NCBI GenBank assembly: GCA_028702025.1
Contig: JAQVPR010000035.1
Span: 1 to 20,081, forward strand
Direction of reading: 5' to 3'
Length of the DNA: 20,081 bases
Source of the DNA: Candidatus Cloacimonadota bacterium
GTDB lineage: Bacteria; Cloacimonadota; Cloacimonadia; Cloacimonadales; WRIO01
The notes beneath the pieces were generated by a model. That model saw only the letters and a program-made list of their open reading frames with translations, had not been told where the DNA came from and did no database searches. Shown piece after piece: positions 949 to 20,081 of the stretch. A program made the translations under genes and the position numbers. Each line of letters begins with the position of its first letter. Position 1 is the stretch's first letter.

Positions 949-3900
949 ATGTTATCAAGAGATTACAATAAAAGATTAAAAGAAACAACAGAAGAAAGAA
1001 AAAAGATTATCGATAACGTAACGAGATTGTATGTTTCGTTGTTAAAAAATGATAATACCATAACAACTAACGAAATCAATGTGTTGTATAGCTTGTTGAC
1101 AAATATTTTTAGAAAAGAATCTATTTCTTGGGAAGTTTATATCCGACAGATAATAGATAGCGAGATAAATCAAAATAAACAGAAATTAAAAAATAAAGAC
1201 ATTAAATCTGTTAATAACTCAATTTTGAATATTTGTGATCCGGCTATTATAGCTTTTTTAAATGAAAAATTAAGTGTTCTTGATAAAATAAGGATATTGT
1301 TAAGTTTGATTATTATGTCTTATTCTGACAATGATTTCACTATACAGGAAATTACCTTGATTATTGAGCTGGCGAAAAAACTTGATTTAGAAACAGATAG
1401 TTTTATGGAGATTATAAATGCTATAGAATATAAAACTTCTGATGCTGTTTCAATAAAGGGGTTTAGGCATCTTAATACAATCGATGATTCCATTTTTAGT
1501 GATTTCTTAGTATTTGGTAGAAGTGAAGAGTGTCAAATCCAGTTTAAAGATAGGTCTCTTAATCATATAGAACTTGTGATGTTTATGATAGATAAGTATA
1601 TTTTCATTGGTACAAATAATCGAGTAAATTCAAGGTTATATAATCAGGATAATAATTCCGAGATGCAGCTTGAACCTTTTGAATTATATTTAGTATCTAA
1701 AGCAAGTTCAATAAAAATAAGTGGACAGATATTTAATTATGATATACTTTGCAAAATATATAATAATCAAGAGATTTATGATGTAATTGATTTTAAAAAG
1801 GTTGATTATGATTTTAAGATAATTAACAATAAGAACCGGCATACAATATTGTTAAGTAGAGGGACTTTTTATAAAAATGGTCAATCTATTCCAAAAAACA
1901 AATATGTTGATTTATTTTATGATGATTTGTTACAGATAAAGAGCTATGCTAATTTTTCTTTGATTGACGTAATAAGGGAAAGAAGTGAGATTGGAGTAGA
2001 AAATATTAATCCAAAAGAGCTATTTATAGAATATTATGATGGTTTTTTTTCGATTAGTAAGATAGAATCTGTTTCGACTATAGTATATATAGAAATAAAT
2101 AATAACAAATTTACTATTTATCCACCCAAAAAGAATTGGGATATATTTTTAAATAATAATAAAATCTCTGAACCTTCTCAATTTTATTTAAATACAGATA
2201 TTATAACAATTAATAAAAAGAATTTCCGAATTAATAATTTCTTTGATTTGGTTGAGATACCGTTTGAAATTGAGCATATAAATGTCTTAGATATTAAGCA
2301 TTATTTTTCTGATGGTAATATTGGTTTAGACAGCATTTCTTTTGATATTCAAAAGGGTGAGATTATTGGAGTAATGGGTCAATCGGGATGTGGAAAGTCA
2401 AGTCTTTTAAAGGCAATTTGTGGAGAAGTTTTCCCTACTTATGGTTCTGTATTATATGATGGTAAAGATTATTTTGAAAATATTAATTTTTATTCTCAGT
2501 TTGTTGGTTATGTCCCTCAGGATGACTTATTATTTTCTAATTTAACTGTGTATGAAAACTTGTATTATCGTGGTAAATTAAGAATACCTAAAATAACTAA
2601 TAGCTATTTAAAGCAGAAGATAGATAATATTTTGCTTAAAACTAATTTAATCCATAGAAAGAATACCAAAGTTGGAGATTTAAAAAATAAATTACTTAGC
2701 GGTGGCGAAAGAAAAAGATTAAATTTAGCACTTGAGTTATTATTTGACCCTACCATAATTATTTGTGATGAACCTACTTCCGGCTTAAGTTATTCTGATG
2801 CAGAACAAATCATTGATATACTTAGAAGTTTTTCTGAACAAGGTAAATTTGTTATTTTAACAATACACCAACCTAATACAAATGTTTTTCATAAGTTTGA
2901 TAAAATCTTATTAATGGATAAAGGTGGTAAGCAAGTTTTTTATGGTCAGCCTTCAGAAGTCTGGACCTATTTTGATGTTGAATATGAGCAGATCAGTTTT
3001 AACAAAGAATTAATAACGCAAAAGAAAGAAGAACGTTTGCCTGAGTATGTAAATATAATTATTGAATATCCCGAATATAGAGAAAATGGTGAGATTGTTT
3101 ATGAGCAACAAGCTCAAAATCTTATGGTTAAAAGAAAGTTTCCTCCTGAATATTGGCGAGATAAGTATAAAAGAAAGATGCTTTTTGATTTAATACAATT
3201 TGACTCTATGCGGGCAAAATCTAATAAACCTCCGGTTAAGCAAAGAAAGAAGATAGATTTTAATGCTAAGTTAACTCAGTTTTGGACATTTTTTAAGCGT
3301 AATCTAATAATGAAACTTAGAAATAAATTAAATCTTTTAATTACGTTCGGAGAGGCACCGTTATTAGGAATAATTATTGCCTTTATCTTAAGATTAGCAC
3401 CTTCAGGCGAGTCATATTCTTTTAATCAAAATATAAACATAGGTATATATATTTTTATCTCGGTAATTGTCTTTATTTTTTTAGGAATGTCTAACAGTAT
3501 GGAAGAAATTTTATCCGAAAGAAAAAGTATATTAAGAGAGAAAATGCTTAATCTGAGAATGACATATTTTTTAGGTTCCAAGATAGGTGTTTTGTGCTTA
3601 TTTTCTTTTATGCAGGTATTCTTGTATCTTTCGGTTTCAAGTGTAATCTTGTCAGTAAAAGGTGTTTTCTTAATTTATTTTGTTTATTTATTTATTGCTT
3701 CGCTTATTGGGTCTTCTCTTGGCGTATTGATTTCTTCGTTTTTAAGTGATGTTAAGTCAGTGATAAACATATTACCTTTGATTTTAATACCGCAAATTAT
3801 ATTTGGTGGTGCGATAGTTGAGTATGAGAAGATGAATCGTCAATTGAAGTTAATAGATAACAATCCTATTCCTGAAATCGTGCAAATTATGCCTTCAAGA

Positions 3901-4335
3901 TGGATTTTTGAGGGGCTTTATACAGCTCAAGCAAAGTTAAATCCATACGATAAAAAAATAAATAAAATTGATAAGCTAAGAAAAAATCTAGTGAGTACAT
4001 CTAACAATTATTCAAAAGATTTAAGTGATTTATATAAGCAAATAAATGTTGTTAATACAAGGTATCCTAAATCAAAATATAACAATGAATACATAAATCT
4101 TTCTGTAAATATAATGGATGGAAGATTTCTTAATAGTGGTTCAATTTCACCGGATAATAACAGTAAGCGACCTGTGAATGTATTTCTATCTTCTATGAAA
4201 ATTATTAAAGGGATTCCATTACTTAAAGATAAGATTATCCCTACATATATTTATAATATTATAATTATAATGTTTTTTACTCTTGTAATAAATACTGCAA
4301 CCCTATTAAAAATTAAGTATTTTTACAAGGAGTAA
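949..4335 (+). CDS. Fused ABC transporter, ATPase plus ABC-2/ABCG-type permease, with an N-terminal TerB-like region and FHA-like domain(s)
   Basis: Walker A is GQSGCGKS (nt 2377-2400). The ABC signature is LSGGERKR (from nt 2695), followed by Walker B IIICDEPTSGLS and an H-loop (LTIHQP). The C-terminal half is hydrophobic with multiple TM helices (NBD-then-TMD order, ABC-2/ABCG-like), with a long hydrophilic loop before the last helix. At the N-terminus, LLSLIIMSYSDNDFTIQEITLIIELAKKLDLETDSF resembles the TerB-like repeat pattern. FGRSEECQIQFKDRSLNHIEL carries the FHA G-R...S-x-x-H signature. Confidence 0.85.
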   Translation: MLSRDYNKRLKETTEERKKIIDNVTRLYVSLLKNDNTITTNEINVLYSLLTNIFRKESISWEVYIRQIIDSEINQNKQKLKNKDIKSVNNSILNICDPAIIAFLNEKLSVLDKIRILLSLIIMSYSDNDFTIQEITLIIELAKKLDLETDSFMEIINAIEYKTSDAVSIKGFRHLNTIDDSIFSDFLVFGRSEECQIQFKDRSLNHIELVMFMIDKYIFIGTNNRVNSRLYNQDNNSEMQLEPFELYLVSKASSIKISGQIFNYDILCKIYNNQEIYDVIDFKKVDYDFKIINNKNRHTILLSRGTFYKNGQSIPKNKYVDLFYDDLLQIKSYANFSLIDVIRERSEIGVENINPKELFIEYYDGFFSISKIESVSTIVYIEINNNKFTIYPPKKNWDIFLNNNKISEPSQFYLNTDIITINKKNFRINNFFDLVEIPFEIEHINVLDIKHYFSDGNIGLDSISFDIQKGEIIGVMGQSGCGKSSLLKAICGEVFPTYGSVLYDGKDYFENINFYSQFVGYVPQDDLLFSNLTVYENLYYRGKLRIPKITNSYLKQKIDNILLKTNLIHRKNTKVGDLKNKLLSGGERKRLNLALELLFDPTIIICDEPTSGLSYSDAEQIIDILRSFSEQGKFVILTIHQPNTNVFHKFDKILLMDKGGKQVFYGQPSEVWTYFDVEYEQISFNKELITQKKEERLPEYVNIIIEYPEYRENGEIVYEQQAQNLMVKRKFPPEYWRDKYKRKMLFDLIQFDSMRAKSNKPPVKQRKKIDFNAKLTQFWTFFKRNLIMKLRNKLNLLITFGEAPLLGIIIAFILRLAPSGESYSFNQNINIGIYIFISVIVFIFLGMSNSMEEILSERKSILREKMLNLRMTYFLGSKIGVLCLFSFMQVFLYLSVSSVILSVKGVFLIYFVYLFIASLIGSSLGVLISSFLSDVKSVINILPLILIPQIIFGGAIVEYEKMNRQLKLIDNNPIPEIVQIMPSRWIFEGLYTAQAKLNPYDKKINKIDKLRKNLVSTSNNYSKDLSDLYKQINVVNTRYPKSKYNNEYINLSVNIMDGRFLNSGSISPDNNSKRPVNVFLSSMKIIKGIPLLKDKIIPTYIYNIIIIMFFTLVINTATLLKIKYFYKE

Positions 4336-4336
4336 A

Positions 4337-5452
4337 ATGAATCCAACTATATATTTGAGTGTAGTACTTATATTTTTTACTTTGTGTATGAGTAGGTTAT
4401 TATTTAAAAAAAGATTTAAGTTTCAAAATAAGAATTTGTCGGTAAATAAGTTTTCTATAGTTATTTCGTGTAGAAATGAGGCACATAATTTAGTTCATTT
4501 GTTTGATTCTTTACAAAAACTTCATTATTCTCAATCATTATATGAAATAATGTTTATAGATGATCATTCTACAGATGAAACGTTTGATTTATTGACTAAA
4601 TTTTGTGTAAAATCAGTTAATTATCATGCTTATAGGTTGTCAGGTATAAGTCAGGGCAAAAAGTTTGCTTTGCAAAAAGGGATTTCTTATGCTCAAAATG
4701 ATTGGATTGTGTTTACAGATGCTGATTGTATTGTGCATTGTGATTGGTTAGATTCGATAGATTTTATGATACAAAAAGATAAGTTAAATTTAATCTCAAT
4801 GTATATTGGATATTCTCCGGAAGAGAGATTAAAGAATATATCATATTTAGTAGCTTCATTTAGATATTTTAAGCAATTAGTTTCAGCATTTATTTATGCT
4901 TCAAGTACTATGGCAGGTTATCCATTTAGTTGTACTGCACGAAATTTAATTTTTAAAAAGAGTGCATTTAATACTGTTGGAGGATATAGTGAATTCCTTA
5001 ATGCTGATGACAATTTATTAAATAAATTTTCCGGTGATGACAAACTTCTTTTAAAGAAATTTCTTGGTCATAAACAGAAGATATCTTATCTGCCATATCC
5101 ACCGATTTATACAAAGGCAGTTAATGATAACTCTGTAAAAAATCAAGATTTGAGACGGTACGGAAAATTTTCAATGTCATCATTATTATGGCAGATAATT
5201 ATGTTAATTATCGGCTTATGCTTAGTTTATATCCCAATAGAAATAGTGTTTATTAAACAGTCTTATCCGGAATTAGGACTTTTTCTTTTTAGTTTAGTTT
5301 TTTTTTCTTTTATAGGATGTTTAGTTCACAGGGAAAAATTTTATTTAGAATATATTATCTTTAGTATCTTTTTCCCTTATTATTTGATTTATAAAATGAT
5401 TAAAGCAAGGTTTTGCAAATGGACTTGGAAAAACAGAAGACTCACTATATAA
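4337..5452 (+). CDS. Family 2 glycosyltransferase (GT-A fold) with N- and C-terminal TM segments
   Basis: FSIVISCRNEAHNL...IMFIDDHSTDET is a typical GT2 N-terminal nucleotide-sugar binding region. A DxD-type motif follows (FTDADC), then a hydrophobic C-terminus. AAGGAG lies just upstream of the ATG, inside the end of the ABC gene, and the ATG is 1 nt after the ABC stop. Confidence 0.8.
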   Translation: MNPTIYLSVVLIFFTLCMSRLLFKKRFKFQNKNLSVNKFSIVISCRNEAHNLVHLFDSLQKLHYSQSLYEIMFIDDHSTDETFDLLTKFCVKSVNYHAYRLSGISQGKKFALQKGISYAQNDWIVFTDADCIVHCDWLDSIDFMIQKDKLNLISMYIGYSPEERLKNISYLVASFRYFKQLVSAFIYASSTMAGYPFSCTARNLIFKKSAFNTVGGYSEFLNADDNLLNKFSGDDKLLLKKFLGHKQKISYLPYPPIYTKAVNDNSVKNQDLRRYGKFSMSSLLWQIIMLIIGLCLVYIPIEIVFIKQSYPELGLFLFSLVFFSFIGCLVHREKFYLEYIIFSIFFPYYLIYKMIKARFCKWTWKNRRLTI

Positions 5453-6342
5453 AAAGATTATACCTTTATATAAAGGATAACCCTTATAAAAATTATTTCA
5501 AGATTTTACTATCTGTTATTATATTAGTAATTATTTTCTTTAAGATTAAAAATACCTCAGATATCGGCAATGTCTTTTTACCTATTATCAAAACCACTTC
5601 AGTGAAATCATTAGTAATGCTATTATTAATATCCGTAATGAAGTTTTTTACTCAGGTATTTAATTGGTATTATGTTTTAAAAATTAATCAAGACTATGAT
5701 TGTACTTTCAGGCAAGTGATTAAAACGCATACTATTGGATTAGCTTTAAGGTTTTTTATGCCGGGAGGGCATGCAACTTTTGGTAAAGTCTTTTATATTA
5801 ATCCTGATAAAAAAAAGGAAACATTCTTTTCAATAATTGCAGAAAAGTTTTTTCAGTCTTGGATTATATGGTTTTTTGCAATATGGTCATTTTTGTTTTA
5901 TTATGATAAGAACTATTTATTGGTTTTATTCATAGCTCTTTTGATAACTTTTGTTCCATTTATAATTCCGAAAATATTTAAAAGACATATACCGTATATG
6001 ACAATTTTTAATTATTATAAGATTTTACCTAAGGTTATTTTATCACAGATTTTATTTGTGTTTATGACCTTTATTCAGTATTATTTAATTCTTTCTCAAC
6101 TTACTCAAATAAGGTTTTTTAATACAGCAATATCGGTATCATTAATACTTGTGGCAAATACGATACCGATTACATTTAGTGGGCTTGGTTTAAGAGAAAC
6201 AGCTGCAACGATTGTATTGCCAAAGTATGGTATTCCAATAGAATTAGCTGTTGGTACTTCACTTTGTATTTTTGTATTAAATTCTGTTATTCCTGCTTTA
6301 CCGGGAGTATTTTTAATAAGTTCTAAGAATAAAGGAAAGTAA
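5413..6342 (+). CDS. LPG-synthase-TM / UPF0104 'flippase-like' integral membrane protein (paralog 1)
   Basis: The protein is polytopic and about 300 aa. It carries the family-typical late motif P-x-T-x-S-G-L-G-L-R-E (IPITFSGLGLRETAATIVL) and a mid-protein LALRFFMPGG segment. It overlaps the GT2 gene by 40 nt if the first ATG is used, or 34 nt from the second. The exact start is uncertain. Confidence 0.6.
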   Translation: MQMDLEKQKTHYIKRLYLYIKDNPYKNYFKILLSVIILVIIFFKIKNTSDIGNVFLPIIKTTSVKSLVMLLLISVMKFFTQVFNWYYVLKINQDYDCTFRQVIKTHTIGLALRFFMPGGHATFGKVFYINPDKKKETFFSIIAEKFFQSWIIWFFAIWSFLFYYDKNYLLVLFIALLITFVPFIIPKIFKRHIPYMTIFNYYKILPKVILSQILFVFMTFIQYYLILSQLTQIRFFNTAISVSLILVANTIPITFSGLGLRETAATIVLPKYGIPIELAVGTSLCIFVLNSVIPALPGVFLISSKNKGK

Positions 6343-7113: not shown

Positions 7114-7241
7114 AAGTTTATCTACGTTAAATAATCGTTATTTTGAACTGATTTTGAAGAATAAATCTATTATGATAACTTTTTAACTAACTAATTGAAG
7201 TATAGTTAGTTATATATAATTTACTTATAACCAAATTATAA

Positions 7242-7279
7242 GGGACCTCCAAGATGCTTTTGACCATCTTGGAGGTCCC
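7242..7279. other. Perfect 15-bp GC-rich inverted repeat (hairpin) with an 8-nt loop; possible operon-end terminator or structured RNA/REP-like element
   Basis: GGGACCTCCAAGATG (7242-7256), loop CTTTTGAC, CATCTTGGAGGTCCC (7265-7279). It stands out strongly against the AT-rich background. The T-run (7300-7305) begins about 20 nt after the stem rather than immediately, so it is not a canonical intrinsic terminator. Confidence 0.35.
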
Positions 7280-7455
7280 CGGTATCTCGATGGATGATGT
7301 TTTTTAACTAATTTTATCAATCACACTAAAATAATTGTATATAATAATTGATATTTCGGGATAAATCTAAAGTAATTATTTTGAAATAAGAAAATGAAAA
7401 AGGAGTGGTTTTTAATATTTTCAACTACAGGATTTTAACATTTAAAAAAAATATA

Positions 7456-10732: not shown

Positions 10733-10751
10733 AGGAGGCTAAACGCCTCCT
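10733..10751 (+). terminator. Short stem-loop just after the thrS stop; weak terminator or attenuating structure
   Basis: AGGAGGC (10733-10739), loop TAAAC, GCCTCCT (10745-10751). No U-tract follows it (CACTTGTTC), so it is at best a partial terminator or an RNA-stability element. Confidence 0.25.
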
Positions 10752-10769: not shown

Positions 10770-11735
10770 ATGAATATTATTGATATTATAAAAAAAGAAA
10801 TGCACACCGAAGCTGAAGCAATCAAAATTGCTTCTGAAAAGATTGATGTTTCAATAGAAAAAGCTGTACATTATATTTTACAATGTAAAGGTAAGGTAGT
10901 AACTACAGGAATGGGCAAATCCGGACTTATAGCAAGAAAGATTTCTGCTACTTTTGCCTCTACCGGAACAACCTCAATATTTTTACATCCTGCTGAAGGT
11001 ATTCATGGTGATCTGGGAATGCTTCAAAAAGGAGATGTAGTCCTTGCTTTGTCTCATAGTGGGAATACTCAGGAATTAATCTCAATTATTCCTTATATAA
11101 AGTTTAATAAAATACCTTTAATTTCAATTACCGGCAATGTGACTTCTAATTTAGCAAAGAATTCAGATGTTGTGATTGATTCTTTTGTAGATAAGGAATG
11201 TGAACCCTTTGGATTAGTTCCAACCGCAAGTACAACAGTTCAACTTTCAATTGGAGATGCTTTAGCTGTATCAGTTTTGAAAATGAAAGATTTTAAGGTA
11301 ACAGATTTTGCTCTCTTTCATCCCGGAGGAACTATTGGGAAGAAATTATTACTTAAAGTAGCTGATTTAATGCATACAGGAAAGGCAAATCCCATCGTTA
11401 CTGATAAAGAAAATATGCAGAATGTGATTTTAGAGATGACTTCTAAAGGACTCGGTTGTACGAATGTTATTGATGATGACGGAAAGCTTGTCGGTATTGT
11501 AACTGATGGGGATTTAAGAAGATTTTTGTCCTTGGGTTTAACAGATTTAAATATCAATGTAAAAGATGCAATGACTGTTTCACCTAAAAGAATGACTGCT
11601 GAAACCCTTGCTGTGGAAGCTTTAAATCTAATGGAAGAATGTAAAATTACAATGTTACCGATAATTGATCAAGAAGATAAACCTATTGGCATTTTACATA
11701 TGCACGATTTAATAAAATCAGGTGTTGTTTCTTGA
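10770..11735 (+). CDS. kdsD: KpsF/GutQ-family arabinose-5-phosphate isomerase (SIS domain plus tandem CBS)
   Basis: The SIS domain motif is VVTTGMGKSGLIARKISATFASTGTTSIFLHPAEGIHGDLGM, followed by SHSGNT. The C-terminus has two CBS modules (…VGIVTDGDLRR…, …PIGILHMHDLIK). Length and architecture are as in KdsD. Confidence 0.9.
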   Translation: MNIIDIIKKEMHTEAEAIKIASEKIDVSIEKAVHYILQCKGKVVTTGMGKSGLIARKISATFASTGTTSIFLHPAEGIHGDLGMLQKGDVVLALSHSGNTQELISIIPYIKFNKIPLISITGNVTSNLAKNSDVVIDSFVDKECEPFGLVPTASTTVQLSIGDALAVSVLKMKDFKVTDFALFHPGGTIGKKLLLKVADLMHTGKANPIVTDKENMQNVILEMTSKGLGCTNVIDDDGKLVGIVTDGDLRRFLSLGLTDLNINVKDAMTVSPKRMTAETLAVEALNLMEECKITMLPIIDQEDKPIGILHMHDLIKSGVVS

Positions 11736-11758
11736 GTATGAGTTATTGGAGATAAGAA

Positions 11759-12793
11759 ATGAATAAGATTAATTTTTGTTTGATTGGGTGTGGAAGAATT
11801 TCTTCAAGGCATCTTGATGCCCTTAAATTGATTGATTCCGCTAATGTTTTAGCCTGTTGTGATATAGTTACTGAATTAGCCGAAGATACTGCTAAAAAGT
11901 ATAATATAAAGAATTTCTATACAAATTATAAAGAGATGCTGGAAATTGAACAGCCCAACGCAGTAATAATCTGTACTCCAAGCGGATTACACTCGGAAAT
12001 GGGTATATTCGCTGCAGAACATCATATAAATGTAATAACTGAAAAACCTGTTAGTATAAGCTTAAAACAAGCTGATTCTTTGATTAAAGCCTGTGATAAT
12101 AATAAAGTAAAGTTATTCGTTGTTAAACAAAATAGGCTTAATCAACCGATTCAATTACTTAAAAATGCTATAGATAAGGGAAGATTCGGAAAGATATTCA
12201 GTGTGAATTCTACTGTTAGATGGACAAGACCTCAGTCTTATTATGATTTATCAAAATGGAGAGGCACTTGGGAGTTTGATGGAGGTGCTTTTCTAAATCA
12301 GGCTTCACACTACTTTGACCTTTTATATTGGCTAATTGGACCGGTTGATTATGTTATGGCTACTACTGCAACTCTAAATCATAATATTGAAGTTGAAGAT
12401 TTAGGTGCAGGCATAATAAGATTTCGTAACGGAGTGATTGGTGTTATCGAAGTGACTATGAATATATTCCCAAGAAATCTTGAAGGATCTATAACTGTAA
12501 TGGGTGAGTATGGTACTGCTAAGATTGGTGGGATTGCTGTGAATAAAGTAGAACACTGGGAATTTAAAGATTATGATGATGATGATAGATTTATTGATAA
12601 TTTAAATACAAAGCCTCTCGATGTATATGGTTATGGGCATTTAGGCTTTTTAAGTAATGTCGTTGAGGTATTATTAGGTAAAGCAGAACCTAAAACTGAT
12701 GGAAGAGATGGACGAAAATCTCTTGAAATAATACTTGCAATGTATGAATCTGCTAAGATTGGCAAGAGAGTTTCTTTGCCGTTTAACCCTTAA
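11759..12793 (+). CDS. Gfo/Idh/MocA family NAD(P)-dependent oxidoreductase
   Basis: An N-terminal Rossmann motif is present (INFCLIGCGRISSRH), along with the family EKP motif (VITEKPVSISLKQA) and a C-terminal alpha/beta dimerisation-type domain. The substrate is not inferable. Confidence 0.85.
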   Translation: MNKINFCLIGCGRISSRHLDALKLIDSANVLACCDIVTELAEDTAKKYNIKNFYTNYKEMLEIEQPNAVIICTPSGLHSEMGIFAAEHHINVITEKPVSISLKQADSLIKACDNNKVKLFVVKQNRLNQPIQLLKNAIDKGRFGKIFSVNSTVRWTRPQSYYDLSKWRGTWEFDGGAFLNQASHYFDLLYWLIGPVDYVMATTATLNHNIEVEDLGAGIIRFRNGVIGVIEVTMNIFPRNLEGSITVMGEYGTAKIGGIAVNKVEHWEFKDYDDDDRFIDNLNTKPLDVYGYGHLGFLSNVVEVLLGKAEPKTDGRDGRKSLEIILAMYESAKIGKRVSLPFNP

Positions 12794-12815
12794 TTTATTA
12801 TTAGAAAGGTAGTAT

Positions 12816-13703
12816 ATGTTACGTAATTATTTTGATACAAGAACTAAATTATTAGACGAAGCTTTGAAAAATTACTTAAACTATGATAAAGAGCAACCGG
12901 CTCAATTATATCAAGCTATGAAATACTCGATGTTTAGTGGGGGGAAAAGACTTAGACCTATATTGTTTTTTGCAACTTATGAAATGCTAATGCAAAAAGA
13001 TGATATTGAACTCATAAAACCATTTTTATCTGTTGGGTGTGCATTAGAGATGGTTCATAGTGCATCATTAATTCATGATGATTTGCCTTCTTTGGATAAT
13101 TCAAATGAACGACGTGGGTTACCAAGTTGTCATAAAAAATTTAATCCGGCTATAGCAATTCTTGCCGGTGATGCTCTTTTAACTAAAGCCTTTGAAATGA
13201 TGACTTTAGTAGAAGATAAAGAATTAGCAGTACATTTGGTATCAATACTTTGTAATGCTGTTTCAACACGAGGTATGTTAGGTGGACAAACTGTTGATGT
13301 TCTTTCCGCAGATAAGCAAGTATTACAGATAAATGTTTTAAAATATGTTCATTCAAAGAAAACAGGAGCTTTACTTGAAGCAGCAGTCAAGTGTGCTTGT
13401 GCATGTGCTTTTGTTGACCCTTCAGTTACGAACACCTTATCAACTTATGCGATGAATTTAGGCTTAGCATATCAAATAATTGATGATATCTTAGATGATG
13501 TTGGTGATTTTGAAACTTTAGGGAAAGAACCTTTTGAGGATGTTAAAAATCATAAGAAGACTTATCCTACTATTTTAGGGCTTGATAAAGCAAGAAAACT
13601 TGCAGATAAGTTATTAGAGGATTCATATAAACTTGTTAAAAATATGAAGAATAATGGAGTATTAGTAGAATTTGTTACAATGATAAAGGATAGGTTGCCA
13701 TAA
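12816..13703 (+). CDS. Short-chain trans-polyprenyl diphosphate synthase, probably geranylgeranyl-diphosphate synthase
   Basis: GGKRLRP is present. The first Asp-rich motif has the bacterial 2-residue insertion, DDLPSLDNSNERRG. It is followed by AILAGDAL, KTGAL, and the second Asp-rich motif IIDDILDD. A small residue (Ala83) sits at position -5 before the first motif, where FPP synthases have an aromatic residue. Confidence 0.9.
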   Translation: MLRNYFDTRTKLLDEALKNYLNYDKEQPAQLYQAMKYSMFSGGKRLRPILFFATYEMLMQKDDIELIKPFLSVGCALEMVHSASLIHDDLPSLDNSNERRGLPSCHKKFNPAIAILAGDALLTKAFEMMTLVEDKELAVHLVSILCNAVSTRGMLGGQTVDVLSADKQVLQINVLKYVHSKKTGALLEAAVKCACACAFVDPSVTNTLSTYAMNLGLAYQIIDDILDDVGDFETLGKEPFEDVKNHKKTYPTILGLDKARKLADKLLEDSYKLVKNMKNNGVLVEFVTMIKDRLP

Positions 13704-13704
13704 T

Positions 13705-14580
13705 TTGATAAATCTTTTCAAATTTATTAAAGCCGGAATAAAAATAATAAGATTGTATAATTGTTTATTTGTTTTATTTACTGTATTCTTAGGTGCTTTT
13801 TTTTTAAGTTTTGATACGAGTATGTCAATTTTATCTAAAATTCTTTTTGTAGGTGTATCAGCTTTTTTTATTGCTGCAGGGGGATATGTTATTAATGATG
13901 TTTATGATTATGAGATTGATAAGATAAATAAACCTAATAGAGTTTTACCGAGTAGAAAAATGAAGCTTAATACAGCTTATGTTTTTAGTATTTGTTTGTT
14001 TTTGATAGGTATAGTCTTTGCTATATTAACATATAATATATGGTGTATATTGATAGCATTGATAAATAGTATTTTACTTTATAATTATGCTAAACATTTT
14101 AAAAAGATTTTTTTAATCGGTAATCTTGTTGTAGCATGGAATGCGTCGTCAACGTTTATATTTGGAGCTTTAATAACCTTAAATCTCAAGAATATAATTT
14201 CTTTAGTATTGATTTCATTTTTTTATACTTTATTGCGAGAATTTATTAAGTGCATTGAGGATTACGAGGGAGATAAAGCAGATTCAGCAAAGACAATAAC
14301 TGTTCTATTAGGTTTGAGAAAGACATTATATTTAAGTTATATTCCTGCAATGATAACAGTGTTATCATTTAATCTTATGTATATTTTAAATCAAATTAGT
14401 ATTGAGCTTTTTTATATATTGAATATAATTATTGTTATACCGTTTATTGTATTTTATTATATTATGCATAAATCATTACATAGAGTAATTGTTGCAAATG
14501 TTCAGAAATATATGAAACTTAATATGTTGAGTGTTGTATTATTATATGTAGTATATGATTTTTTTAAAGTTCGAATATAA
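13705..14580 (+). CDS. UbiA-family membrane prenyltransferase, digeranylgeranylglyceryl-phosphate synthase (DGGGPS)-like
   Basis: The first Asp-rich motif, NDVYDYEIDKINKPNRVLPS, matches the ND-x-x-D-x-E-I-D-x-I-N-x-P-x-R-P-x-P-S pattern of archaeal DGGGPS and chlorophyll synthases. The second motif is IEDYEGDKADSAKTITV. About 8 TM segments are predicted. The start is TTG, 1 nt after the upstream stop. The conserved first helix (IRLYNCLFVLFTVFLGAF) lies upstream of the first in-frame ATG, which supports the TTG start. Confidence 0.8.
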   Translation: MINLFKFIKAGIKIIRLYNCLFVLFTVFLGAFFLSFDTSMSILSKILFVGVSAFFIAAGGYVINDVYDYEIDKINKPNRVLPSRKMKLNTAYVFSICLFLIGIVFAILTYNIWCILIALINSILLYNYAKHFKKIFLIGNLVVAWNASSTFIFGALITLNLKNIISLVLISFFYTLLREFIKCIEDYEGDKADSAKTITVLLGLRKTLYLSYIPAMITVLSFNLMYILNQISIELFYILNIIIVIPFIVFYYIMHKSLHRVIVANVQKYMKLNMLSVVLLYVVYDFFKVRI

Positions 14581-14603
14581 ATATTAGAAAGTATTGAGGA
14601 AAA

Positions 14604-15377
14604 ATGAAGAATAAAACCTATAAATATTTATTAGAATCCATAAAGGATAATCCGTCATATTTTTGTCTAATTGATCCTGATAAAGTAGAAGTCAATCAAG
14701 CACAAGAATTAGCTTGTTTATATGAAGAAAATGGTGCTGATTGTATTTTGATTGGTGGAAGTATGATGCTTAATGACAGGTTTTGTGAAGCAATAAAAGA
14801 GATTAAGATAAAATGTACAATACCTGTGATAATTTTCCCGGGAATATTTAATTTTGTTTCGCCTGATGCAGATGCTTTATTGTTATTAAATATGGTTAGT
14901 AGTAGAAATCCTCAGGTATTAATTAATGAGCAAGTTAGATCTGCACCTTTAATCTATAAATCTAAGTTAGAGACAATACCGACGGCTTATATGTTGATAG
15001 AATCCGGATGTATGTCTTCAGTTCAGTATATGAGTCATAGTTTGCCAATACCGAGAAAGAAAGCTGATATAGCTATAGTGCATGCTTTAGCTGCTCAGTA
15101 TCTTGTGATGAAGATTGTCTATTTGGAAGCAGGGAGTGGTGCAGAAAAGCAAGTTCCGAGTGAAATGATAATGAAAGTTCGAGAGCATATAGATATTCCG
15201 ATTATAGTGGGTGGAGGAATAAGGAAACCGGAATGTGCTGAAGAAAAAGCAAGAGCCGGTGCTGACTTTATAGTAACAGGTACTGTTTTGGAAGATTTAA
15301 AAAATCCTTGTTTAGTAAAAGAGTTTGCTCAAGCAGTACATAATGTAAAAAGGAATACAGATGATAGATATTCATAA
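14604..15377 (+). CDS. Geranylgeranylglyceryl-phosphate synthase (GGGPS/PcrB family TIM barrel)
   Basis: It aligns by eye with B. subtilis PcrB and archaeal GGGPS motifs: LIDPDK (vs KLDPNK), ILIGGS, YLEAGSGA (vs YLEYSG), IVGGGIR (vs YGGGIK) and ADFIVTGTVLED. At 257 aa it fits the longer 'group II' GGGPS type rather than the roughly 230-aa PcrB type. Confidence 0.9.
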   Translation: MKNKTYKYLLESIKDNPSYFCLIDPDKVEVNQAQELACLYEENGADCILIGGSMMLNDRFCEAIKEIKIKCTIPVIIFPGIFNFVSPDADALLLLNMVSSRNPQVLINEQVRSAPLIYKSKLETIPTAYMLIESGCMSSVQYMSHSLPIPRKKADIAIVHALAAQYLVMKIVYLEAGSGAEKQVPSEMIMKVREHIDIPIIVGGGIRKPECAEEKARAGADFIVTGTVLEDLKNPCLVKEFAQAVHNVKRNTDDRYS

Positions 15378-16143
15378 TCACATTTTACCGGGTATAGATG
15401 ATGGTTCTAGTGATGTTGAAACAACATATTCTTATTTAGATTTAATTGCTGAAGCAAAAATGAAAGCTGTAGTTTTTACACCACATTATATGAGAGGGTT
15501 TTATGATAATACTAAAGATGTAGTCTTAAAAAGTTTTAGATATGTTGAGGATTATGTCAAAGAAAAAGGGTATAATTATAATATTTATTGTTCTGCAGAG
15601 GTTTATCTGATGGGGGAGGAAGCGGTTAAGGATATACAGACTAATGCTTTTATGATAAATGGGACTCGTTATGTATTAGTGGAAAACAGTTTGACAGGTT
15701 TTTCAGATGATTTATTTGAAAATTTATATAAGATGACTAAATTGGGTTTGAAGCCGATATTAGCTCATCCGGAAAGATATATTGAGATACAAAGAAATCC
15801 TTCAATGGCTGAAGATTTTATGCATCGAGATGTTTATTTACAAATTAATAGCGGAAGTATTTTGGGTAGTTATGGAGAAAAAGTTAAGAATGTTGCTTTT
15901 GAGCTTATAGATAGAGGTTTTGCTCATTTCTTGGGTTCGGATTGTCATTGTCATTCCGGGGTTTATGATTACCCTCAGGCGGTGGAAGCATTAAGGCAAG
16001 AGTTTGATGAAGATACAGCAGAAGTTCTTTCTGAAGATCATCCTGAACGAATGTTGAACAATGAAAATATCCCGTATTTTTATGTTTTTCATCAACCCAA
16101 ACCACCTAAAAAGAACTTTATACAAAAGTTGTTTGGCTTATGA
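15361..16143 (+). CDS. PHP-domain metal-dependent phosphatase, CpsB/CapC/YwqE-like
   Basis: The N-terminus MIDIHNHILPGIDDGS is the hallmark of the CpsB/YwqE family. Later HPERY and GSDCH metal-ligand motifs are also present. The gene overlaps the 3' end of the GGGPS gene by 17 nt. Confidence 0.85.
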   Translation: MIDIHNHILPGIDDGSSDVETTYSYLDLIAEAKMKAVVFTPHYMRGFYDNTKDVVLKSFRYVEDYVKEKGYNYNIYCSAEVYLMGEEAVKDIQTNAFMINGTRYVLVENSLTGFSDDLFENLYKMTKLGLKPILAHPERYIEIQRNPSMAEDFMHRDVYLQINSGSILGSYGEKVKNVAFELIDRGFAHFLGSDCHCHSGVYDYPQAVEALRQEFDEDTAEVLSEDHPERMLNNENIPYFYVFHQPKPPKKNFIQKLFGL

Positions 16144-16177
16144 TAGGGGTTTGTGAAATTTATTTAAGGAAATTTTT

Positions 16178-17248
16178 ATGAATATAGAAAATGATACAGC
16201 ATTTAATTTTGTTCAAGATTTACCTTCTGTGTTAATGACAGGAATTACGGGGTTTATTGGGAAACATACAGCATTAAAGATTATGAAGAAATATAATATA
16301 ACTGCATTAATCAGGCCGAATACTAAGAAAAAAAGATATACAGAATTTGAAAATGAGGTTAGATTAATTGAGCTTGATTTATCTGATAAGATGAAACTAC
16401 AAGAGTTTTTAGAAAAAAATAAATTTGATTTTATTTTGCACATTGGAGCTTTAAGAGGTGGTAGAGCTTTTAGTGCTGATGAATTTTTAAAAACAAATGT
16501 TGTAGCTACGGAAACCCTGTTAAATTATGCTGTAATAAATAATAGTAAGTTTATATTTTGTTCATCTGTAGGTGTGTTTGGTGCTATTCCGGTTGAATTA
16601 CCTGCTAATAATAACACTCCTTTTAAAGAGGATAATCTTTATCATAAAACCAAGATTATATGTGAAAAAATGATTCAAAAGGCTGTTTTGGATAAATCTT
16701 TAAAAGCCTATATTGTAAGACCTGCAATTACTTATGGTAAAGATGATTATGGATTTCCTTATACTTTAACAAAGTTAGTAGATAAGAGATTACTGTTTAT
16801 TCCTGATAAGAAAATATATATACATTTAACTAATGTTGACGCTCTTGCAGAGGCATTTAGTAAAATCTTAGAAAATGATTATCCTATTGGTAAAATCTGG
16901 ACTGTGGCAGATTACGAAAGAGTAAACTTTAATGACCTGATAGATTTTATTTATGAACGAATTGGTGATTATAAGAAATCAAAAATAAATCAAAAAAATG
17001 ATGATAATAATAAAACAGTAAATGATTTTAATAAGTATCCAAAATCTAGAGTTATAAGAAAAGAAGTCTTTGTTTTATTTACTAAATTAGCAAAGTTTTT
17101 TAAAAATGAGTTATGGACTTCAAGATTTGAATTAATATCAAATAGCTGGTATTATGATGTTAAACAGACATATGTTGATTTAAAACTTAAACAATACAAG
17201 ACGATTCCTGAATTTAAGGTTGTAGTTGATTGGTATTGTAAAAAATAA
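16178..17248 (+). CDS. NAD-dependent epimerase/dehydratase (extended SDR)
   Basis: The glycine-rich motif MTGITGFIGKH is present, with a catalytic Ser region (FCSSVGVFG) and Y-x-x-x-K (YHKTK). The C-terminal region contains an N/K-rich insertion. Confidence 0.85.
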   Translation: MNIENDTAFNFVQDLPSVLMTGITGFIGKHTALKIMKKYNITALIRPNTKKKRYTEFENEVRLIELDLSDKMKLQEFLEKNKFDFILHIGALRGGRAFSADEFLKTNVVATETLLNYAVINNSKFIFCSSVGVFGAIPVELPANNNTPFKEDNLYHKTKIICEKMIQKAVLDKSLKAYIVRPAITYGKDDYGFPYTLTKLVDKRLLFIPDKKIYIHLTNVDALAEAFSKILENDYPIGKIWTVADYERVNFNDLIDFIYERIGDYKKSKINQKNDDNNKTVNDFNKYPKSRVIRKEVFVLFTKLAKFFKNELWTSRFELISNSWYYDVKQTYVDLKLKQYKTIPEFKVVVDWYCKK

Positions 17249-17294
17249 CATTTGTGTGATTAAGATACTTGATTATTGTAAGCGGAGAAAGTAA

Positions 17295-18170
17295 ATGGCG
17301 ATACCGATTTTAGATTTTTGGAAAAAATATTATAGTAATCCTGATGAAGGTTTGGGCTCTACTTATGAAAGATTTATTATAAATGATATACTTGATAGAG
17401 TTGTTAAAGATTATGACATAAAATCTGTTTTAGAAGTTCCTTCATTTGGTTTTACCGGTTTATCGGGTATCAATAGTTTATGGCTTTCCTTAAATGGAAT
17501 GCAAGTAAATGTAGTTGATTCTGATAAGGAAAGATTAAACCTTGTTTCAGAGGTTTGGAATAAGATTGAATCAAAGTTGCATAATAAAATGTTAGCTGTA
17601 GATTTTACGTATTTAGAAAATTTTGATAAATTACCTTTTGATGATAATAGCTTTGATATGATATGGAATTTTTCTGCTATGTGGTTTGTACAAGATTTGG
17701 AGTTATTTTTATCTCAATTAGCTAATGTGTCTAAAAAAATAATCTTGATAATGGTTCCTAACAGAACAGGTTTAGGTTATTTACATCAGAAATATACAGG
17801 GAAAAAAGATTTATCTAAATATTTGATTGAAAACAATATAAAGAGTTCTGTTTTTATCCCGATACTCAAAAAATATGGATGGAATTTAATAGAAGATAAT
17901 TACTTAGATTGTCCGTTATGGCCAGATATTGGTATGAGTAAAGAAGATTTTTTAAGTAAACTTTTTTTGCGTAAAAAACCTGTCCCGAAATATAAAAAAA
18001 CAAAAGATGGAATAAGTATTATTGATTATTATATTGGAGCAAAACCTGAAATGAAATTATCATTAAACAAATATAAACTATTTGAAAATTTTGCTCCCGG
18101 TATCTTTAAAAAGATTTGGGCTCATCATCATTATTATCTTTTTGTTCCTGAGAAAAATAATAAAATATGA
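17295..18170 (+). CDS. Putative class I SAM-dependent methyltransferase (divergent)
   Basis: It has a Rossmann-like pattern: VLEVPSFGFTGLSG (a degenerate motif I), an acidic residue at the end of the next strand (VNVVDSD), FDMIWNFSAMWFV (motif II-like) and KKIILIMVPN. The motif I glycines are not canonical, so the call is tentative. Confidence 0.45.
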   Translation: MAIPILDFWKKYYSNPDEGLGSTYERFIINDILDRVVKDYDIKSVLEVPSFGFTGLSGINSLWLSLNGMQVNVVDSDKERLNLVSEVWNKIESKLHNKMLAVDFTYLENFDKLPFDDNSFDMIWNFSAMWFVQDLELFLSQLANVSKKIILIMVPNRTGLGYLHQKYTGKKDLSKYLIENNIKSSVFIPILKKYGWNLIEDNYLDCPLWPDIGMSKEDFLSKLFLRKKPVPKYKKTKDGISIIDYYIGAKPEMKLSLNKYKLFENFAPGIFKKIWAHHHYYLFVPEKNNKI

Positions 18171-19213
18171 AAATTATACAGAAAATTGTAATTAGTTTAA
18201 TTATAGGTACTTTATTAATTATTTTATGGTTAAGGTATATAGATTTTGCAGAATTATTATTTTATTTGAAACAGATAAATATCTTGCCTGTTATTCCTTC
18301 AATATTTTTTTATCTTATGTCATATTTTATTCGTTCCCAGAGGTTAAGAGCATTATTGTCGCACAAAACTATAATCCCTGTATTTAGAAATTACACTTAT
18401 GTTTTATCAGGAAATTTTGTTAATTATTTGATTCCTATTAGAGCGGGTGAAGTTATTAAGGCTTATTTTTATAAAAAAAATCATAACATAAAATGGGCAG
18501 AGTCTTTACCGTCAATCTTTATAGATAAATTTTTTGATACCTTTGCGATTTTTGTAGTTTTATTGTTAATTCCTTTTATTGGGATTACTCTTTCTGTGTA
18601 TTTAAAGCTATTGTTAGTAGTTTTAGTTTTGATTTTTATTTTAGGCTTTTTTATTTTATTTATGGCCTCTTTGAGAGAAAATAATAGGCTCGTTTTAGTT
18701 GATAAGAGTAAATTGAGTAGAGTTTATTTGATTATGAAAAGAATTTTTCATAAGTTACTTCTTTTATTGCCAATCAAATATAAAGATAAATTTTATGATT
18801 TTATTAAGCTTTTTTTGGAAGGTTTAGCTATTTTTAAAAATCATAAAAGGCTTTTTCCTGCTTGTTTGGTTTTAACACTTTTAGCGACTTTATCCGATAG
18901 TTTATTCTTTTTTTTAATGTTTAGAGCATTTAATGTACAAATAAATTTTGCATATATATTATTTGGTTATACACTGATATTTTTATCTTATATATTGCCT
19001 CATCCACCGGCACAAATTGGCAGTAATGAGGTTATAATGATTTTAATCTTTGCTATTGGATTTGGACTTGACGAAAACTTAGTTAGTGCAGTAATGTCAT
19101 TTTCTCATGTAATAACTGCTTTAGTGATTTTTATTACAGGGTCCTTGAGTTTAGCTTATGCCGGTATAAAATTAATAGACTTTATAAAAAATAAGGAGAT
19201 AGATAATGAATGA
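18167..19213 (+). CDS. LPG-synthase-TM / UPF0104 'flippase-like' integral membrane protein (paralog 2)
   Basis: The protein is polytopic and 348 aa. It carries the family-typical R-x-G-E motif after TM3 (IPIRAGEVIKAYF) and a late P-x-x-x-G-x-x-E motif (PHPPAQIGSNEVIMILI). It shares an ATGA start/stop overlap with the upstream gene. Confidence 0.65.
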   Translation: MKIIQKIVISLIIGTLLIILWLRYIDFAELLFYLKQINILPVIPSIFFYLMSYFIRSQRLRALLSHKTIIPVFRNYTYVLSGNFVNYLIPIRAGEVIKAYFYKKNHNIKWAESLPSIFIDKFFDTFAIFVVLLLIPFIGITLSVYLKLLLVVLVLIFILGFFILFMASLRENNRLVLVDKSKLSRVYLIMKRIFHKLLLLLPIKYKDKFYDFIKLFLEGLAIFKNHKRLFPACLVLTLLATLSDSLFFFLMFRAFNVQINFAYILFGYTLIFLSYILPHPPAQIGSNEVIMILIFAIGFGLDENLVSAVMSFSHVITALVIFITGSLSLAYAGIKLIDFIKNKEIDNE

Positions 19214-20081
19214 TGATAAGAAAAATTTAGAATTGTTGCAGTCACTGAAATCTGTAAAAGAATCAATTTTAATTCAGTTACATAAAGTTATAGTTGGACA
19301 AGATGAAGTAATCGAGCAAATTTTGATAGCTTTGTTTTCTAATGGTCATTGTTTAATTGAGGGAGTGCCCGGTCTTGCAAAGACTTTGATGATATCTTCT
19401 TTGTCAAAAATTTTAGATTTAAAATTTAGTAGGATACAGTTTACTCCGGACTTAATGCCCTCTGATATAACGGGTACTGAAATCTTGGTTGAAAATAAAG
19501 AAACCGGTCAAAGAGAATTTAAATACATTAAAGGACCTGTATTTTCAAATTTTATACTCGCTGATGAAATCAATAGAACCCCTCCTAAAACTCAATCTGC
19601 ATTACTACAAGCTATGCAGGAGTATGAGGTTACTGCCGGTAATGATACTTTTAAATTAGAACCTCCTTTCTTGGTCTTGGCAACTCAAAATCCTATTGAA
19701 CAAGAGGGTACATATCCTTTGCCCGAAGCACAACTTGATAGATTTATGTTTCATATCGTTATTGATTATCCTGACTTTGAACAAGAAAAAGATATTGTTA
19801 AACAAAGTTTTATTAGAAATAACACCATAAAAAATAAAGATAATACTATCCAATCTGTAATATCTAAAGAGCAAATTATTTCTATCCAACAAGCTATTAA
19901 TGATATCCCTGTTAATGATCACGTTATAGATTTTGCTGTTAAGTTGGTTAGAGCTAGTAGACCTAAAGCTAATGATGGGGATAGTCATATTTCTCCGGTA
20001 TTAAAAAGTATCAAAGAAAAAATTAACTGGGGTGCCGGTCCGAGAGCTTCACAGTTTTTAGTTATTGCTGCAAAAACAAGA
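19206..20081 (+). CDS. MoxR-family AAA+ ATPase, 3'-truncated by the window edge
   Basis: This ORF is absent from the supplied track because no stop codon is reached. Frame 3 from the ATG at 19206 reads MNDDKKNLELLQSLKSVKESILIQLHKVIVGQDEVIEQILIALFSNGHCLIEGVPGLAKTLMISSLSKILDLKFSRIQFTPDLMPSDITGTEI...ILADEINRTPPKTQSALLQAMQE...FLVLATQNPIEQEGTYPLPEAQLDRFMF...WGAGPRASQ. This is the classic MoxR (AAA_3) signature set. It overlaps the upstream stop by 8 nt. Confidence 0.9.
   Translation, partial: MNDDKKNLELLQSLKSVKESILIQLHKVIVGQDEVIEQILIALFSNGHCLIEGVPGLAKTLMISSLSKILDLKFSRIQFTPDLMPSDITGTEILVENKETGQREFKYIKGPVFSNFILADEINRTPPKTQSALLQAMQEYEVTAGNDTFKLEPPFLVLATQNPIEQEGTYPLPEAQLDRFMFHIVIDYPDFEQEKDIVKQSFIRNNTIKNKDNTIQSVISKEQIISIQQAINDIPVNDHVIDFAVKLVRASRPKANDGDSHISPVLKSIKEKINWGAGPRASQFLVIAAKTR

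Follow-up and report, generated by a model that had tools for sequence, protein, structure and literature searches.

A CpsB/YwqE-type PHP phosphatase gene coupled to geranylgeranylglyceryl phosphate synthase in Cloacimonadota, a candidate ether-lipid phosphatase

Introduction

The PHP-family, Mn-dependent phosphotyrosine phosphatases include CpsB (Cps4B) from Streptococcus pneumoniae and YwqE (PtpZ) from Bacillus subtilis. Enzymes of the CpsB/YwqE family are known to hydrolyse phosphomonoesters, and relatives among the PHP proteins, histidinol-phosphate phosphatase for one, use small alkyl phosphates as substrates. A gene for a protein of this family, hereafter PHP, is described here from a stretch of 20,081 nt of a Candidatus Cloacimonadota bacterium (contig JAQVPR010000035.1; the whole stretch is called the window), in which it overlaps the gene for geranylgeranylglyceryl phosphate synthase (GGGPS) inside an isoprenoid ether-lipid gene cluster. 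Its presence in an ether-lipid operon sets a known enzyme family in a new functional context. The pairing recurs in two deeply diverged bacterial lineages, and PHP is tentatively proposed to dephosphorylate geranylgeranylglyceryl phosphate (GGGP), digeranylgeranylglyceryl phosphate (DGGGP) or both.

Archaeal glycolipids, the acetylated diethers of Halobacteria and the acetyl-carrier lipid of Bacillus all depend on dephosphorylation of GGGP, DGGGP or heptaprenylglyceryl phosphate (HepGP), a step for which, to our knowledge, no dedicated enzyme has been described anywhere. In Bacillus, dephosphorylation of HepGP before acetylation by YvoF is assigned to a 'non-specific phosphatase' (PMC12345273); a first-pass annotation of the window, made from its letters and ORF translations, had taken this phosphatase to be unassigned, which is right in that no dedicated enzyme is named and too strong in that the step has been ascribed. 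In Halobacteria, dephosphorylation of DGGGP by an unknown enzyme has been proposed (PMC9179154).

In Cloacimonetes, genes for GGGPS, DGGGP synthase (DGGGPS) and a polyprenyl synthase are co-localized (Villanueva et al. 2021; PMC7852524). The GGGPS and DGGGPS of this group make archaeol phosphatidylglycerol (PG-archaeol) in Escherichia coli, where the DGGGPS homolog is active, and the group lacks CarS and glycerol-1-phosphate dehydrogenase, with CdsA proposed as the CarS substitute (PMC7852524). The absence of CarS noted in the first-pass annotation agrees with a Pfam search of the window, in which no open reading frame (ORF) of at least 100 aa gave a CarS-family match; the lack was already published for Cloacimonetes, together with the argument for a CdsA bypass (PMC7852524). 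A full-text literature search returned no paper tying a PHP protein or a tyrosine phosphatase to GGGPS.

The GGGPS-PHP pair in the window

The core of the cluster comprises the following features, where GGPP is geranylgeranyl diphosphate and FPP farnesyl diphosphate:

12816..13703, + strand: short-chain polyprenyl diphosphate synthase of GGPP-synthase type (isoprenyl diphosphate synthase, IPPS); Pfam polyprenyl_synt 1.4e-54, best NCBIfam matches FPP/GGPP synthase models
13705..14580, + strand: UbiA-family prenyltransferase, DGGGP-synthase-like; Pfam UbiA 8.9e-33, best NCBIfam matches DGGGPS models, all below cut-off (190.7 vs 296)
14604..15377, + strand: GGGPS of the PcrB family, 257 aa; Pfam PcrB 1.6e-40, TIGR01769 209 bits vs 161.55, NF003198 280.7 vs 247
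15361..15377, + strand: 17-nt overlap of the GGGPS end and the PHP start (translational coupling), from ORF coordinates
15361..16143, + strand: CpsB/YwqE-family PHP metal-dependent phosphoesterase, 260 aa; Pfam CpsB_CapC 1.1e-47

The genes for GGPP synthase, DGGGPS-like UbiA protein and GGGPS are co-localized on one strand (12816-15377), 1 and 23 nt apart, and they occur in identical order at 12 further Cloacimonadota loci. The first aspartate-rich motif of the polyprenyl synthase is DDLPSLD with Ala at position -5, which we take, as a reading of chain length, to be the arrangement of CrtE-type GGPP synthases.

The first-pass annotation had placed the PHP start codon 17 nt inside the end of the GGGPS gene, and the two + strand ORFs (14604-15377 and 15361-16143) bear this out. 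The start codon is secure, because the product opens with MIDIHNH, the canonical family N-terminus (MIDIHxH), and Pfam CpsB_CapC aligns from residue 1; the motif AAGGA lies ~8 nt 5' of the ATG. When the distance from GGGPS stop to PHP start was measured in 37 GGGPS-PHP pairs, the median was -1 nt, the frames overlapped in 20 and the spacing was within 25 nt in 30; one locus of the surveys below (L089; loci are numbered with the prefix L) has the identical -17 overlap.

By sequence and predicted fold, the window PHP is a complete, intact CpsB/YwqE-type enzyme; NCBI assigns an identical protein to a Candidatus Cloacimonetes MAG. It scores 162.9 bits against Pfam CpsB_CapC (PF19567; cut-off 27), with residues 1-232 covering profile positions 1-233 of 234, and its matches in the PDB include YwqE (3qy6, 7.8e-30) and CpsB (5.7e-24). 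Ten catalytic positions (H5, H7, D14, H42, E80, E108, H136, R139, D194 and H196) are identical to YwqE in pairwise alignment and invariant in 46 homologs and in all three context groups (Cloacimonadota, second-lineage and kinase-linked PHPs); from published structures, we take R139 to bind phosphate and the other nine to be the trinuclear metal ligands. The AlphaFold2 model (pLDDT 94.6, pTM 0.90) retrieves 3qy6, 3qy8 and 2wjd (YwqE/CpsB) in Foldseek at E 1e-21 to 1e-18 and TM 0.84-0.90, as expected of the distorted TIM-barrel PHP fold, and the next-best folds reach only TM ~0.5, with 2yxo and 4gyf among the fold matches. Membership of the histidinol-phosphatase-type PHP proteins was rejected, given TM ~0.5 and no match to Pfam PHP (PF02811).

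Conservation of the pair in two lineages

A PHP-centred scan, in which a PHP alignment was searched against one genome per GTDB species, gave 80 loci that were annotated by tblastn with the window proteins. Fourteen of these are from Cloacimonadota and five more were added through exact-protein look-ups, giving 19 Cloacimonadota PHP loci besides the window. PHP lies inside an isoprenoid cluster in 19 of the 19, and GGGPS is immediately upstream of it in 15 as well as in the window; PHP also lies downstream at every GGGPS locus of Cloacimonadota type in the metagenome scan described below (L089-L092). A short-chain dehydrogenase/reductase (SDR) gene follows 3' of PHP in L003-L019, directly in most Cloacimonadota loci, and a methyltransferase gene is kept in most. 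The pair persists where its surroundings change: L001 and L002 retain GGGPS-PHP without the SDR, methyltransferase and flippase-like genes 3' of it, and L004 (GC 0.51, on a 3.9-Mb contig) is without GGPP synthase and UbiA and retains GGGPS-PHP-SDR-methyltransferase-MoxR, which suggests rearrangement or transfer of GGGPS-PHP as a unit. At L004:7830-10004, an IS200/IS605-type Y1 transposase and a GNAT acetyltransferase precede GGGPS-PHP in place of GGPP synthase and UbiA.

Two loci of the PHP scan outside Cloacimonadota also have GGGPS 5' of PHP, namely L039 (GC 0.59, 4-nt GGGPS/PHP overlap) and L031 (partial GGGPS at a contig edge). A search with the L039 GGGPS returned a large family at 60-70% identity, and three long contigs of this type read recA-recX-alaS-GGGPS-PHP-(SIS_2)-batA, where the SIS_2 gene is gmhA (TIGR00441 215 bits vs cut-off 209). 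GGGPS-PHP is present in every locus of this second lineage that was examined (L031, L039, L086-L088, L094, L096, L098-L100, L103, L104, L113, L114, L127, L144, L160 and L171-L173; GC 0.34-0.63), in surroundings wholly unlike those of Cloacimonadota: alaS-GGGPS-PHP-(gmhA)-batA. Some PHP homologs of this lineage are named candidate division KSB1 or Calditrichaeota in NCBI, and three PHPs so named (39-49% identity to the query PHP) lie directly after alaS-GGGPS; a homolog labelled 'Poribacteria' does not.

Altogether Cloacimonadota and the KSB1/Calditrichota-labelled group, both deep lineages, yielded ~40 GGGPS-PHP pairs, against 0 of the 64 other CpsB-family loci of the PHP-centred scan (fetched flanks of up to 10 kb, as throughout), so that the adjacency is not a matter of chance. 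PHP identity is ~31% between the lineages and 36-58% within the second, and the pair has therefore survived long divergence.

A GGGPS-centred metagenome scan delimits how widely the pairing holds. Searched with a GGGPS alignment, the metagenomes gave 80 loci (41-71% identity), of which the 73 with at least 300 nt downstream were counted: the next gene is PHP in 15 (16 with the partial locus L089), gmhA in 33 and another gene in 25. PHP is a clade-specific addition and no general companion of bacterial GGGPS. Conservation of the linkage across genomes, which the first-pass annotation had made a condition of its proposal, is borne out in two lineages that diverged deeply, usually as overlapping or abutting frames, with 15 of the 73 sampled bacterial GGGPS loci showing it. 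The usual synteny of the PHP-less loci is alaS-GGGPS-gmhA-batA, with gmhA often a few nt after GGGPS; gmhA follows GGGPS directly in L097, L101, L102, L106, L109-L112, L116-L120 and others (33 loci of L089-L168). The region L088:9557-10141 was also listed with this pairing, in which a sedoheptulose-7-phosphate isomerase, an enzyme of lipopolysaccharide heptose, stands beside an ether-lipid enzyme.

Neighbour-joining trees place the PHP-positive loci in two groups of the GGGPS tree, the Cloacimonadota clade (59/60 bootstraps) and the alaS-linked second-lineage group (0/60), which are sisters in 0/60. In the PHP tree, Cloacimonadota are supported by 61/100 and lineage 2 by 84/100 bootstraps, with the two groups sisters in 0/100. 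The PHP topology is compatible with two independent recruitments of PHP beside GGGPS, neighbour-joining being weak evidence at such depth.

Kinase and Wzz partners

CpsB-family genes of capsule loci normally have a bacterial tyrosine kinase (BY-kinase) and Wzz as partners, and the first-pass annotation had reported none in the window. Pfam, applied to all ORFs of at least 100 aa, and tblastn with five BY-kinase/Wzz queries that were taken from control loci and verified by Pfam, confirm this; a further 6 kb of the source contig also lacks BY-kinase and Wzz, its sole match being a ParA adjoining ParB. A BY-kinase is present at 39 of the 64 other CpsB-family loci (61%), usually with Wzz. The 43 isoprenoid-linked PHP loci (566 kb) gave three kinase matches, one of them credible (L019), and Wzz at none; the matches in L008 and L169 were rejected by Pfam as an Mrp/NUBPL-type ParA and a ParA adjoining ParB, respectively. 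At L019, an exopolysaccharide-export-like locus lies 4-10 kb downstream on the opposite strand (L019:14659-20641, - strand), comprising a Wzc-like protein (AAA_31 with a weak GNVR match) encoded 8.5 kb from PHP, LytR_cpsA_psr, Poly_export/SLBB and a 922-aa protein without a Pfam match. Judged by its domain content, this locus shows that some Cloacimonadales encode BY-kinase-like proteins. A local lack of BY-kinase at isoprenoid-linked PHP loci, within the fetched flanks, is clear.

The surrounding gene run

The window is AT-rich (GC 0.29), and from 10770 to its end there are ten genes, all on the + strand, with gaps of -17 to +46 nt. A terminator-like hairpin (10733-10751) lies just after the threonyl-tRNA synthetase gene and ahead of the KpsF-like gene, and a scan of the window found no terminator-like site between 10751 and 19213. 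Since there is no internal terminator-like site and intergenic gaps are at most 46 nt, 10770-19213 is read as a shared operon. A promoter scan of the window gave 63 sites against 72.5 expected, and no Rfam family was found in the window. Outside the core, the run contains:

10770..11735, + strand: KpsF/KdsD-family arabinose-5-phosphate isomerase; Pfam SIS 3.9e-27 with CBS, TIGR00393 kpsF 312.7 bits vs cut-off 203.7
11759..12793, + strand: GFO/IDH/MocA oxidoreductase, WlbA-like sugar-nucleotide 3-dehydrogenase; Pfam, PDB 3q2i 4.8e-106 and 3q2k 1.4e-102
16178..17248, + strand: extended SDR of the NAD-dependent epimerase/dehydratase family; Pfam Epimerase 4.2e-29, weak similarity to GalE, HpnA and heptose epimerase
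17295..18170, + strand: class I S-adenosylmethionine-dependent methyltransferase (Methyltransf_11); Pfam 6.6e-08, its single PDB match weak (sterol C-methyltransferase, 0.0015)
18167..19213, + strand: LPG_synthase_TM/flippase-like membrane protein; Pfam 5.7e-35, TIGR00374 91 bits vs 43.2; conserved, with a 4-nt overlap with the methyltransferase gene
19206..20081, + strand: MoxR-type AAA+ ATPase, its frame open to the window end and running off it; 8-nt overlap with the flippase-like gene

The KpsF-like and WlbA-like genes (10770-12793) run co-directionally into the isoprenoid genes with gaps of 22-23 nt. The former adjoins the cluster at 3 of 20 Cloacimonadota loci (the window, L001 and L003) and at no others, and is not conserved with PHP; a WlbA-like gene upstream of IPPS is also found in L003, L005-L007, L009-L011 and L014, that is, in at least eight other Cloacimonadota loci. 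The MoxR gene is labelled bpMoxR/AAA_3 in L169 and L003-L005, and genes of the aerotolerance (Bat/MoxR) operon come after the cluster in both lineages that have PHP. A 110-aa minus-strand ORF (19656-19988) antisense within the MoxR gene is probably spurious. No hexapeptide or maltose-acetyltransferase-like ORF, as expected of a YvoF-type O-acetyltransferase, was found in the window by Pfam.

Elsewhere in the window, a family 2 glycosyltransferase (GT2) and a second LPG_synthase_TM flippase-like protein are encoded at 4337-6342 with frames overlapping at 5413-5452; the flippase-like member is a paralogous counterpart of the 18167-19213 gene and the two may form a glycosylation/flipping pair, which is not kept beside the cluster in other genomes. 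The region 949-4335 encodes a 1128-aa ABC transporter (ABC_tran and ABC2_membrane, an ABCG-like architecture) whose N-terminal ~440 residues have no Pfam match, and the first ORF of the window (14-928), complete at 304 aa, has a match to DUF2851 that is limited to the C-terminal third (profile positions 251-371 of 375). The 396-nt AT-rich gap between the TauE gene and a solute-binding-protein gene holds a perfect GC-rich hairpin of 16 bp at 7241-7280 (GGGACCTCCAAGATG...CATCTTGGAGGTCCC), which matches no Rfam family.

Proposed role of PHP and alternative explanations

The favoured reading is that the window PHP is a (di)geranylgeranylglyceryl-phosphate phosphatase, a predicted activity to which a probability of roughly 0.45 is given. 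PHP would be a cytoplasmic trinuclear-metal phosphoesterase, made from the same transcript as GGPP synthase, UbiA and GGGPS and translationally coupled to the last of these, with a role in the isoprenoid glycerol-ether lipid pathway and not as the partner of a capsule tyrosine kinase. It would hydrolyse the phosphomonoester of GGGP and/or DGGGP to leave a free-hydroxyl ether core, geranylgeranylglycerol or unsaturated archaeol, a step that would correspond, among ether lipids, both to the phosphatidate phosphatase reaction and to the dephosphorylation in the PcrB pathway of Bacillus. In Cloacimonadota, the co-transcribed SDR, methyltransferase and flippase-like protein might then use the neutral core, or a glycosyltransferase whose gene lies elsewhere might do so, the GT2/flippase-like pair at 4337-6342 being a further candidate to act on it; dephosphorylation would divert flux away from the phospholipid route activated by cytidine diphosphate (CDP). 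This reading is preferred because the family chemistry is that of a monoesterase, the frame-overlapping neighbour is GGGPS, and Bacillus and Halobacteria offer precedent. The first-pass proposal of a lipid phosphatase thus gains from the linkage, the intact catalytic residues and the absence of a local kinase, with gene context as the sole source for the substrate; what speaks for a lipid substrate is context and chemistry, not a recognisable change in the enzyme.

Several observations weigh against this assignment. Adjacent PHP is lacking at 58 of the 73 sampled bacterial GGGPS loci, and the step is therefore not generally required. In four Cloacimonadota loci (L013, L016, L017 and L019), PHP comes directly after GGPP synthase, with no UbiA or GGGPS within 10 kb, and PHP may thus have a wider role in the isoprenoid operon; these variant IPPS-PHP clusters are located as follows:

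L013:9113-13624, L016:9108-13742, L017:776-5302 and L019:9111-13730: IPPS-PHP variant clusters

L016 and L019 have the order gyrB-gyrA-IPPS-PHP-SDR-flippase-like-MoxR, the methyltransferase gene being absent too, and the PHPs of the variant clusters hold a basal position within the Cloacimonadota PHP clade. Dephosphorylation of GGGP would compete with DGGGPS, which uses GGGP, and the formation of PG-archaeol from GGGPS and DGGGPS alone in E. coli means that a phosphatase is unnecessary for phospholipid formation. No glycosyltransferase belongs to the conserved operon, and sugar-pathway genes (KpsF-like, WlbA-like and gmhA) are nearby in both lineages. A comparison of 22 Cloacimonadota, 13 lineage-2 and 39 kinase-linked PHPs revealed no alignment column common to both GGGPS-linked clades yet rare in kinase-linked CpsBs; a new substrate thus finds no independent backing in the PHP sequence. 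The only differences are Cloacimonadota-specific (E151, Y159, L222 and a C-terminal FY), the catalytic core being identical everywhere.

This absence of distinguishing residues, together with full CpsB/YwqE membership by sequence and fold, would also fit an ordinary phosphotyrosine-protein phosphatase whose BY-kinase or phosphotyrosine substrate is encoded elsewhere, the adjacency to GGGPS then reflecting envelope co-regulation or synteny. The Wzc-like kinase of L019, with its Poly_export and LytR_cpsA_psr genes 4-10 kb downstream, is of the kind this would need, and ~40% of the control CpsB loci are likewise kinase-free in the fetched flanks. Such a function is nonetheless unlikely: a credible BY-kinase is missing at 42 of the 43 isoprenoid-linked loci and Wzz at all 43, against kinase in 61% of controls; the invariant neighbour, with frames that usually overlap, is GGGPS in lineage 2 and most Cloacimonadota loci, the rest of the neighbourhood being entirely different between the two lineages; and the NCBIfam equivalog for Cps4B (NF041488) gives the window PHP 117.1 bits against a cut-off of 400, with 147 bits for a lineage-2 and 111 bits for an IPPS-variant PHP. 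A substrate in the prenyl diphosphate branch is also improbable, whether PHP converted GGPP to the monophosphate or alcohol or removed pyrophosphate (PPi) and so pulled GGPP synthase, GGGPS and DGGGPS forward. This is the sole explanation to cover, by a single substrate class, IPPS-UbiA-GGGPS-PHP, GGGPS-PHP and IPPS-PHP clusters without assuming a GGGPS elsewhere, and the neighbouring enzymes all make or use a prenyl diphosphate and release PPi, as established enzymology has it; by analogy, the order IPPS-PHP-SDR-methyltransferase may resemble routes of prenol oxidation and methylation, and hydrolysis of PPi has been reported for the PHP domains of certain polymerases. Yet the characterized CpsB/YwqE enzymes are monoesterases, hydrolysis of GGPP beside GGPP-consuming enzymes would be wasteful, cells have dedicated pyrophosphatases and lineage 2 has no prenyl synthase nearby.

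The sugar-pathway genes suggest a further function, that of a sugar-phosphate phosphatase in envelope glycan synthesis that replaces the HAD-type GmhB (heptose bisphosphate) or KdsC (3-deoxy-manno-octulosonate 8-phosphate, KDO-8-P), with the proximity to GGGPS as inherited synteny. Both of these sugar pathways are known to require a phosphatase, gmhA follows PHP in ~10 of 15 lineage-2 loci, and the gene run of the window opens with the KpsF/KdsD-type isomerase and WlbA-like dehydrogenase and later includes a GalE-like SDR. Against this, gmhA adjoins GGGPS in 33 PHP-less loci and is therefore background synteny; it is absent after PHP in L087, L096, L171, L173 and all Cloacimonadota, and KpsF occurs at only 3 of 20 Cloacimonadota loci. 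The frame overlap, moreover, is with GGGPS, the gaps between PHP and gmhA being ordinary (3-380 nt), and a sugar-phosphate substrate is accordingly judged highly improbable. With GGGP and DGGGP as the preferred substrates, PHP might be the first phosphatase dedicated to lipid phosphates in the ether-lipid pathway of archaeal type. It would also be the first PHP enzyme of the CpsB/YwqE family to act on a lipid instead of a protein, and apparently one recruited beside GGGPS twice, in Cloacimonadota and in KSB1/Calditrichota-like bacteria; this stronger claim is possible and on present odds doubtful.

Implications and comparison with known systems

FCB (Fibrobacteres-Chlorobi-Bacteroidetes) bacteria that possess GGGPS and DGGGPS hold a key place in the discussion of the 'lipid divide' between bacteria and archaea. 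If PHP acts as proposed, 'archaeal' ether cores would be channelled into neutral, methylated or glycosylated lipids instead of, or besides, phospholipids, and with a phosphatase in the operon, ether cores bearing a free hydroxyl are expected, perhaps along with their methylated or glycosylated derivatives, which would shift the biomarkers to be sought in anoxic waters and digesters. PHP would also name a candidate for the dephosphorylation of GGGP, DGGGP or HepGP, and the annotation of PF19567 proteins as 'capsule tyrosine phosphatase' would become unsafe outside kinase loci.

The published Cloacimonetes cluster comes from the same phylum as the window and has the same three co-localized genes (PMC7852524). 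That paper, in its main text and the supplements examined, is silent on the phosphatase, SDR, methyltransferase and flippase-like genes, and it proposes only CdsA-dependent phospholipid formation (PMC7852524). The pathway of B. subtilis, in which the PcrB product HepGP is converted to heptaprenylglycerol (HepG) and then to acetyl-HepG by YvoF, is alike in that the product of a bacterial GGGPS-family enzyme is dephosphorylated to a neutral prenylglycerol; it differs in that the phosphatase is non-specific and unlinked to pcrB, the chain is C35, PcrB belongs to group I and the window has no YvoF-type acetyltransferase. Phosphatidate phosphatases and lipid phosphate phosphatases (PAP/LPP), together with the histidinol-phosphate phosphatase HisK, also convert an alkyl or glycerol phosphomonoester into a free alcohol, and HisK has the PHP fold; PAP2 and lipin proteins, however, bear no sequence relationship to the window PHP, and HisK-type structures match it only at TM ~0.5. 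The closest relatives are CpsB of S. pneumoniae and YwqE of B. subtilis, which share with the window PHP the family PF19567, equal length, a fold at TM 0.85-0.90, identical metal-ligand positions and R139, and a basic, hydrophobic C-terminal tail common to all. The window PHP is only 26-28% identical to them, and its gene overlaps GGGPS in an isoprenoid ether-lipid operon instead of standing beside Wzz/CpsC-CpsD.

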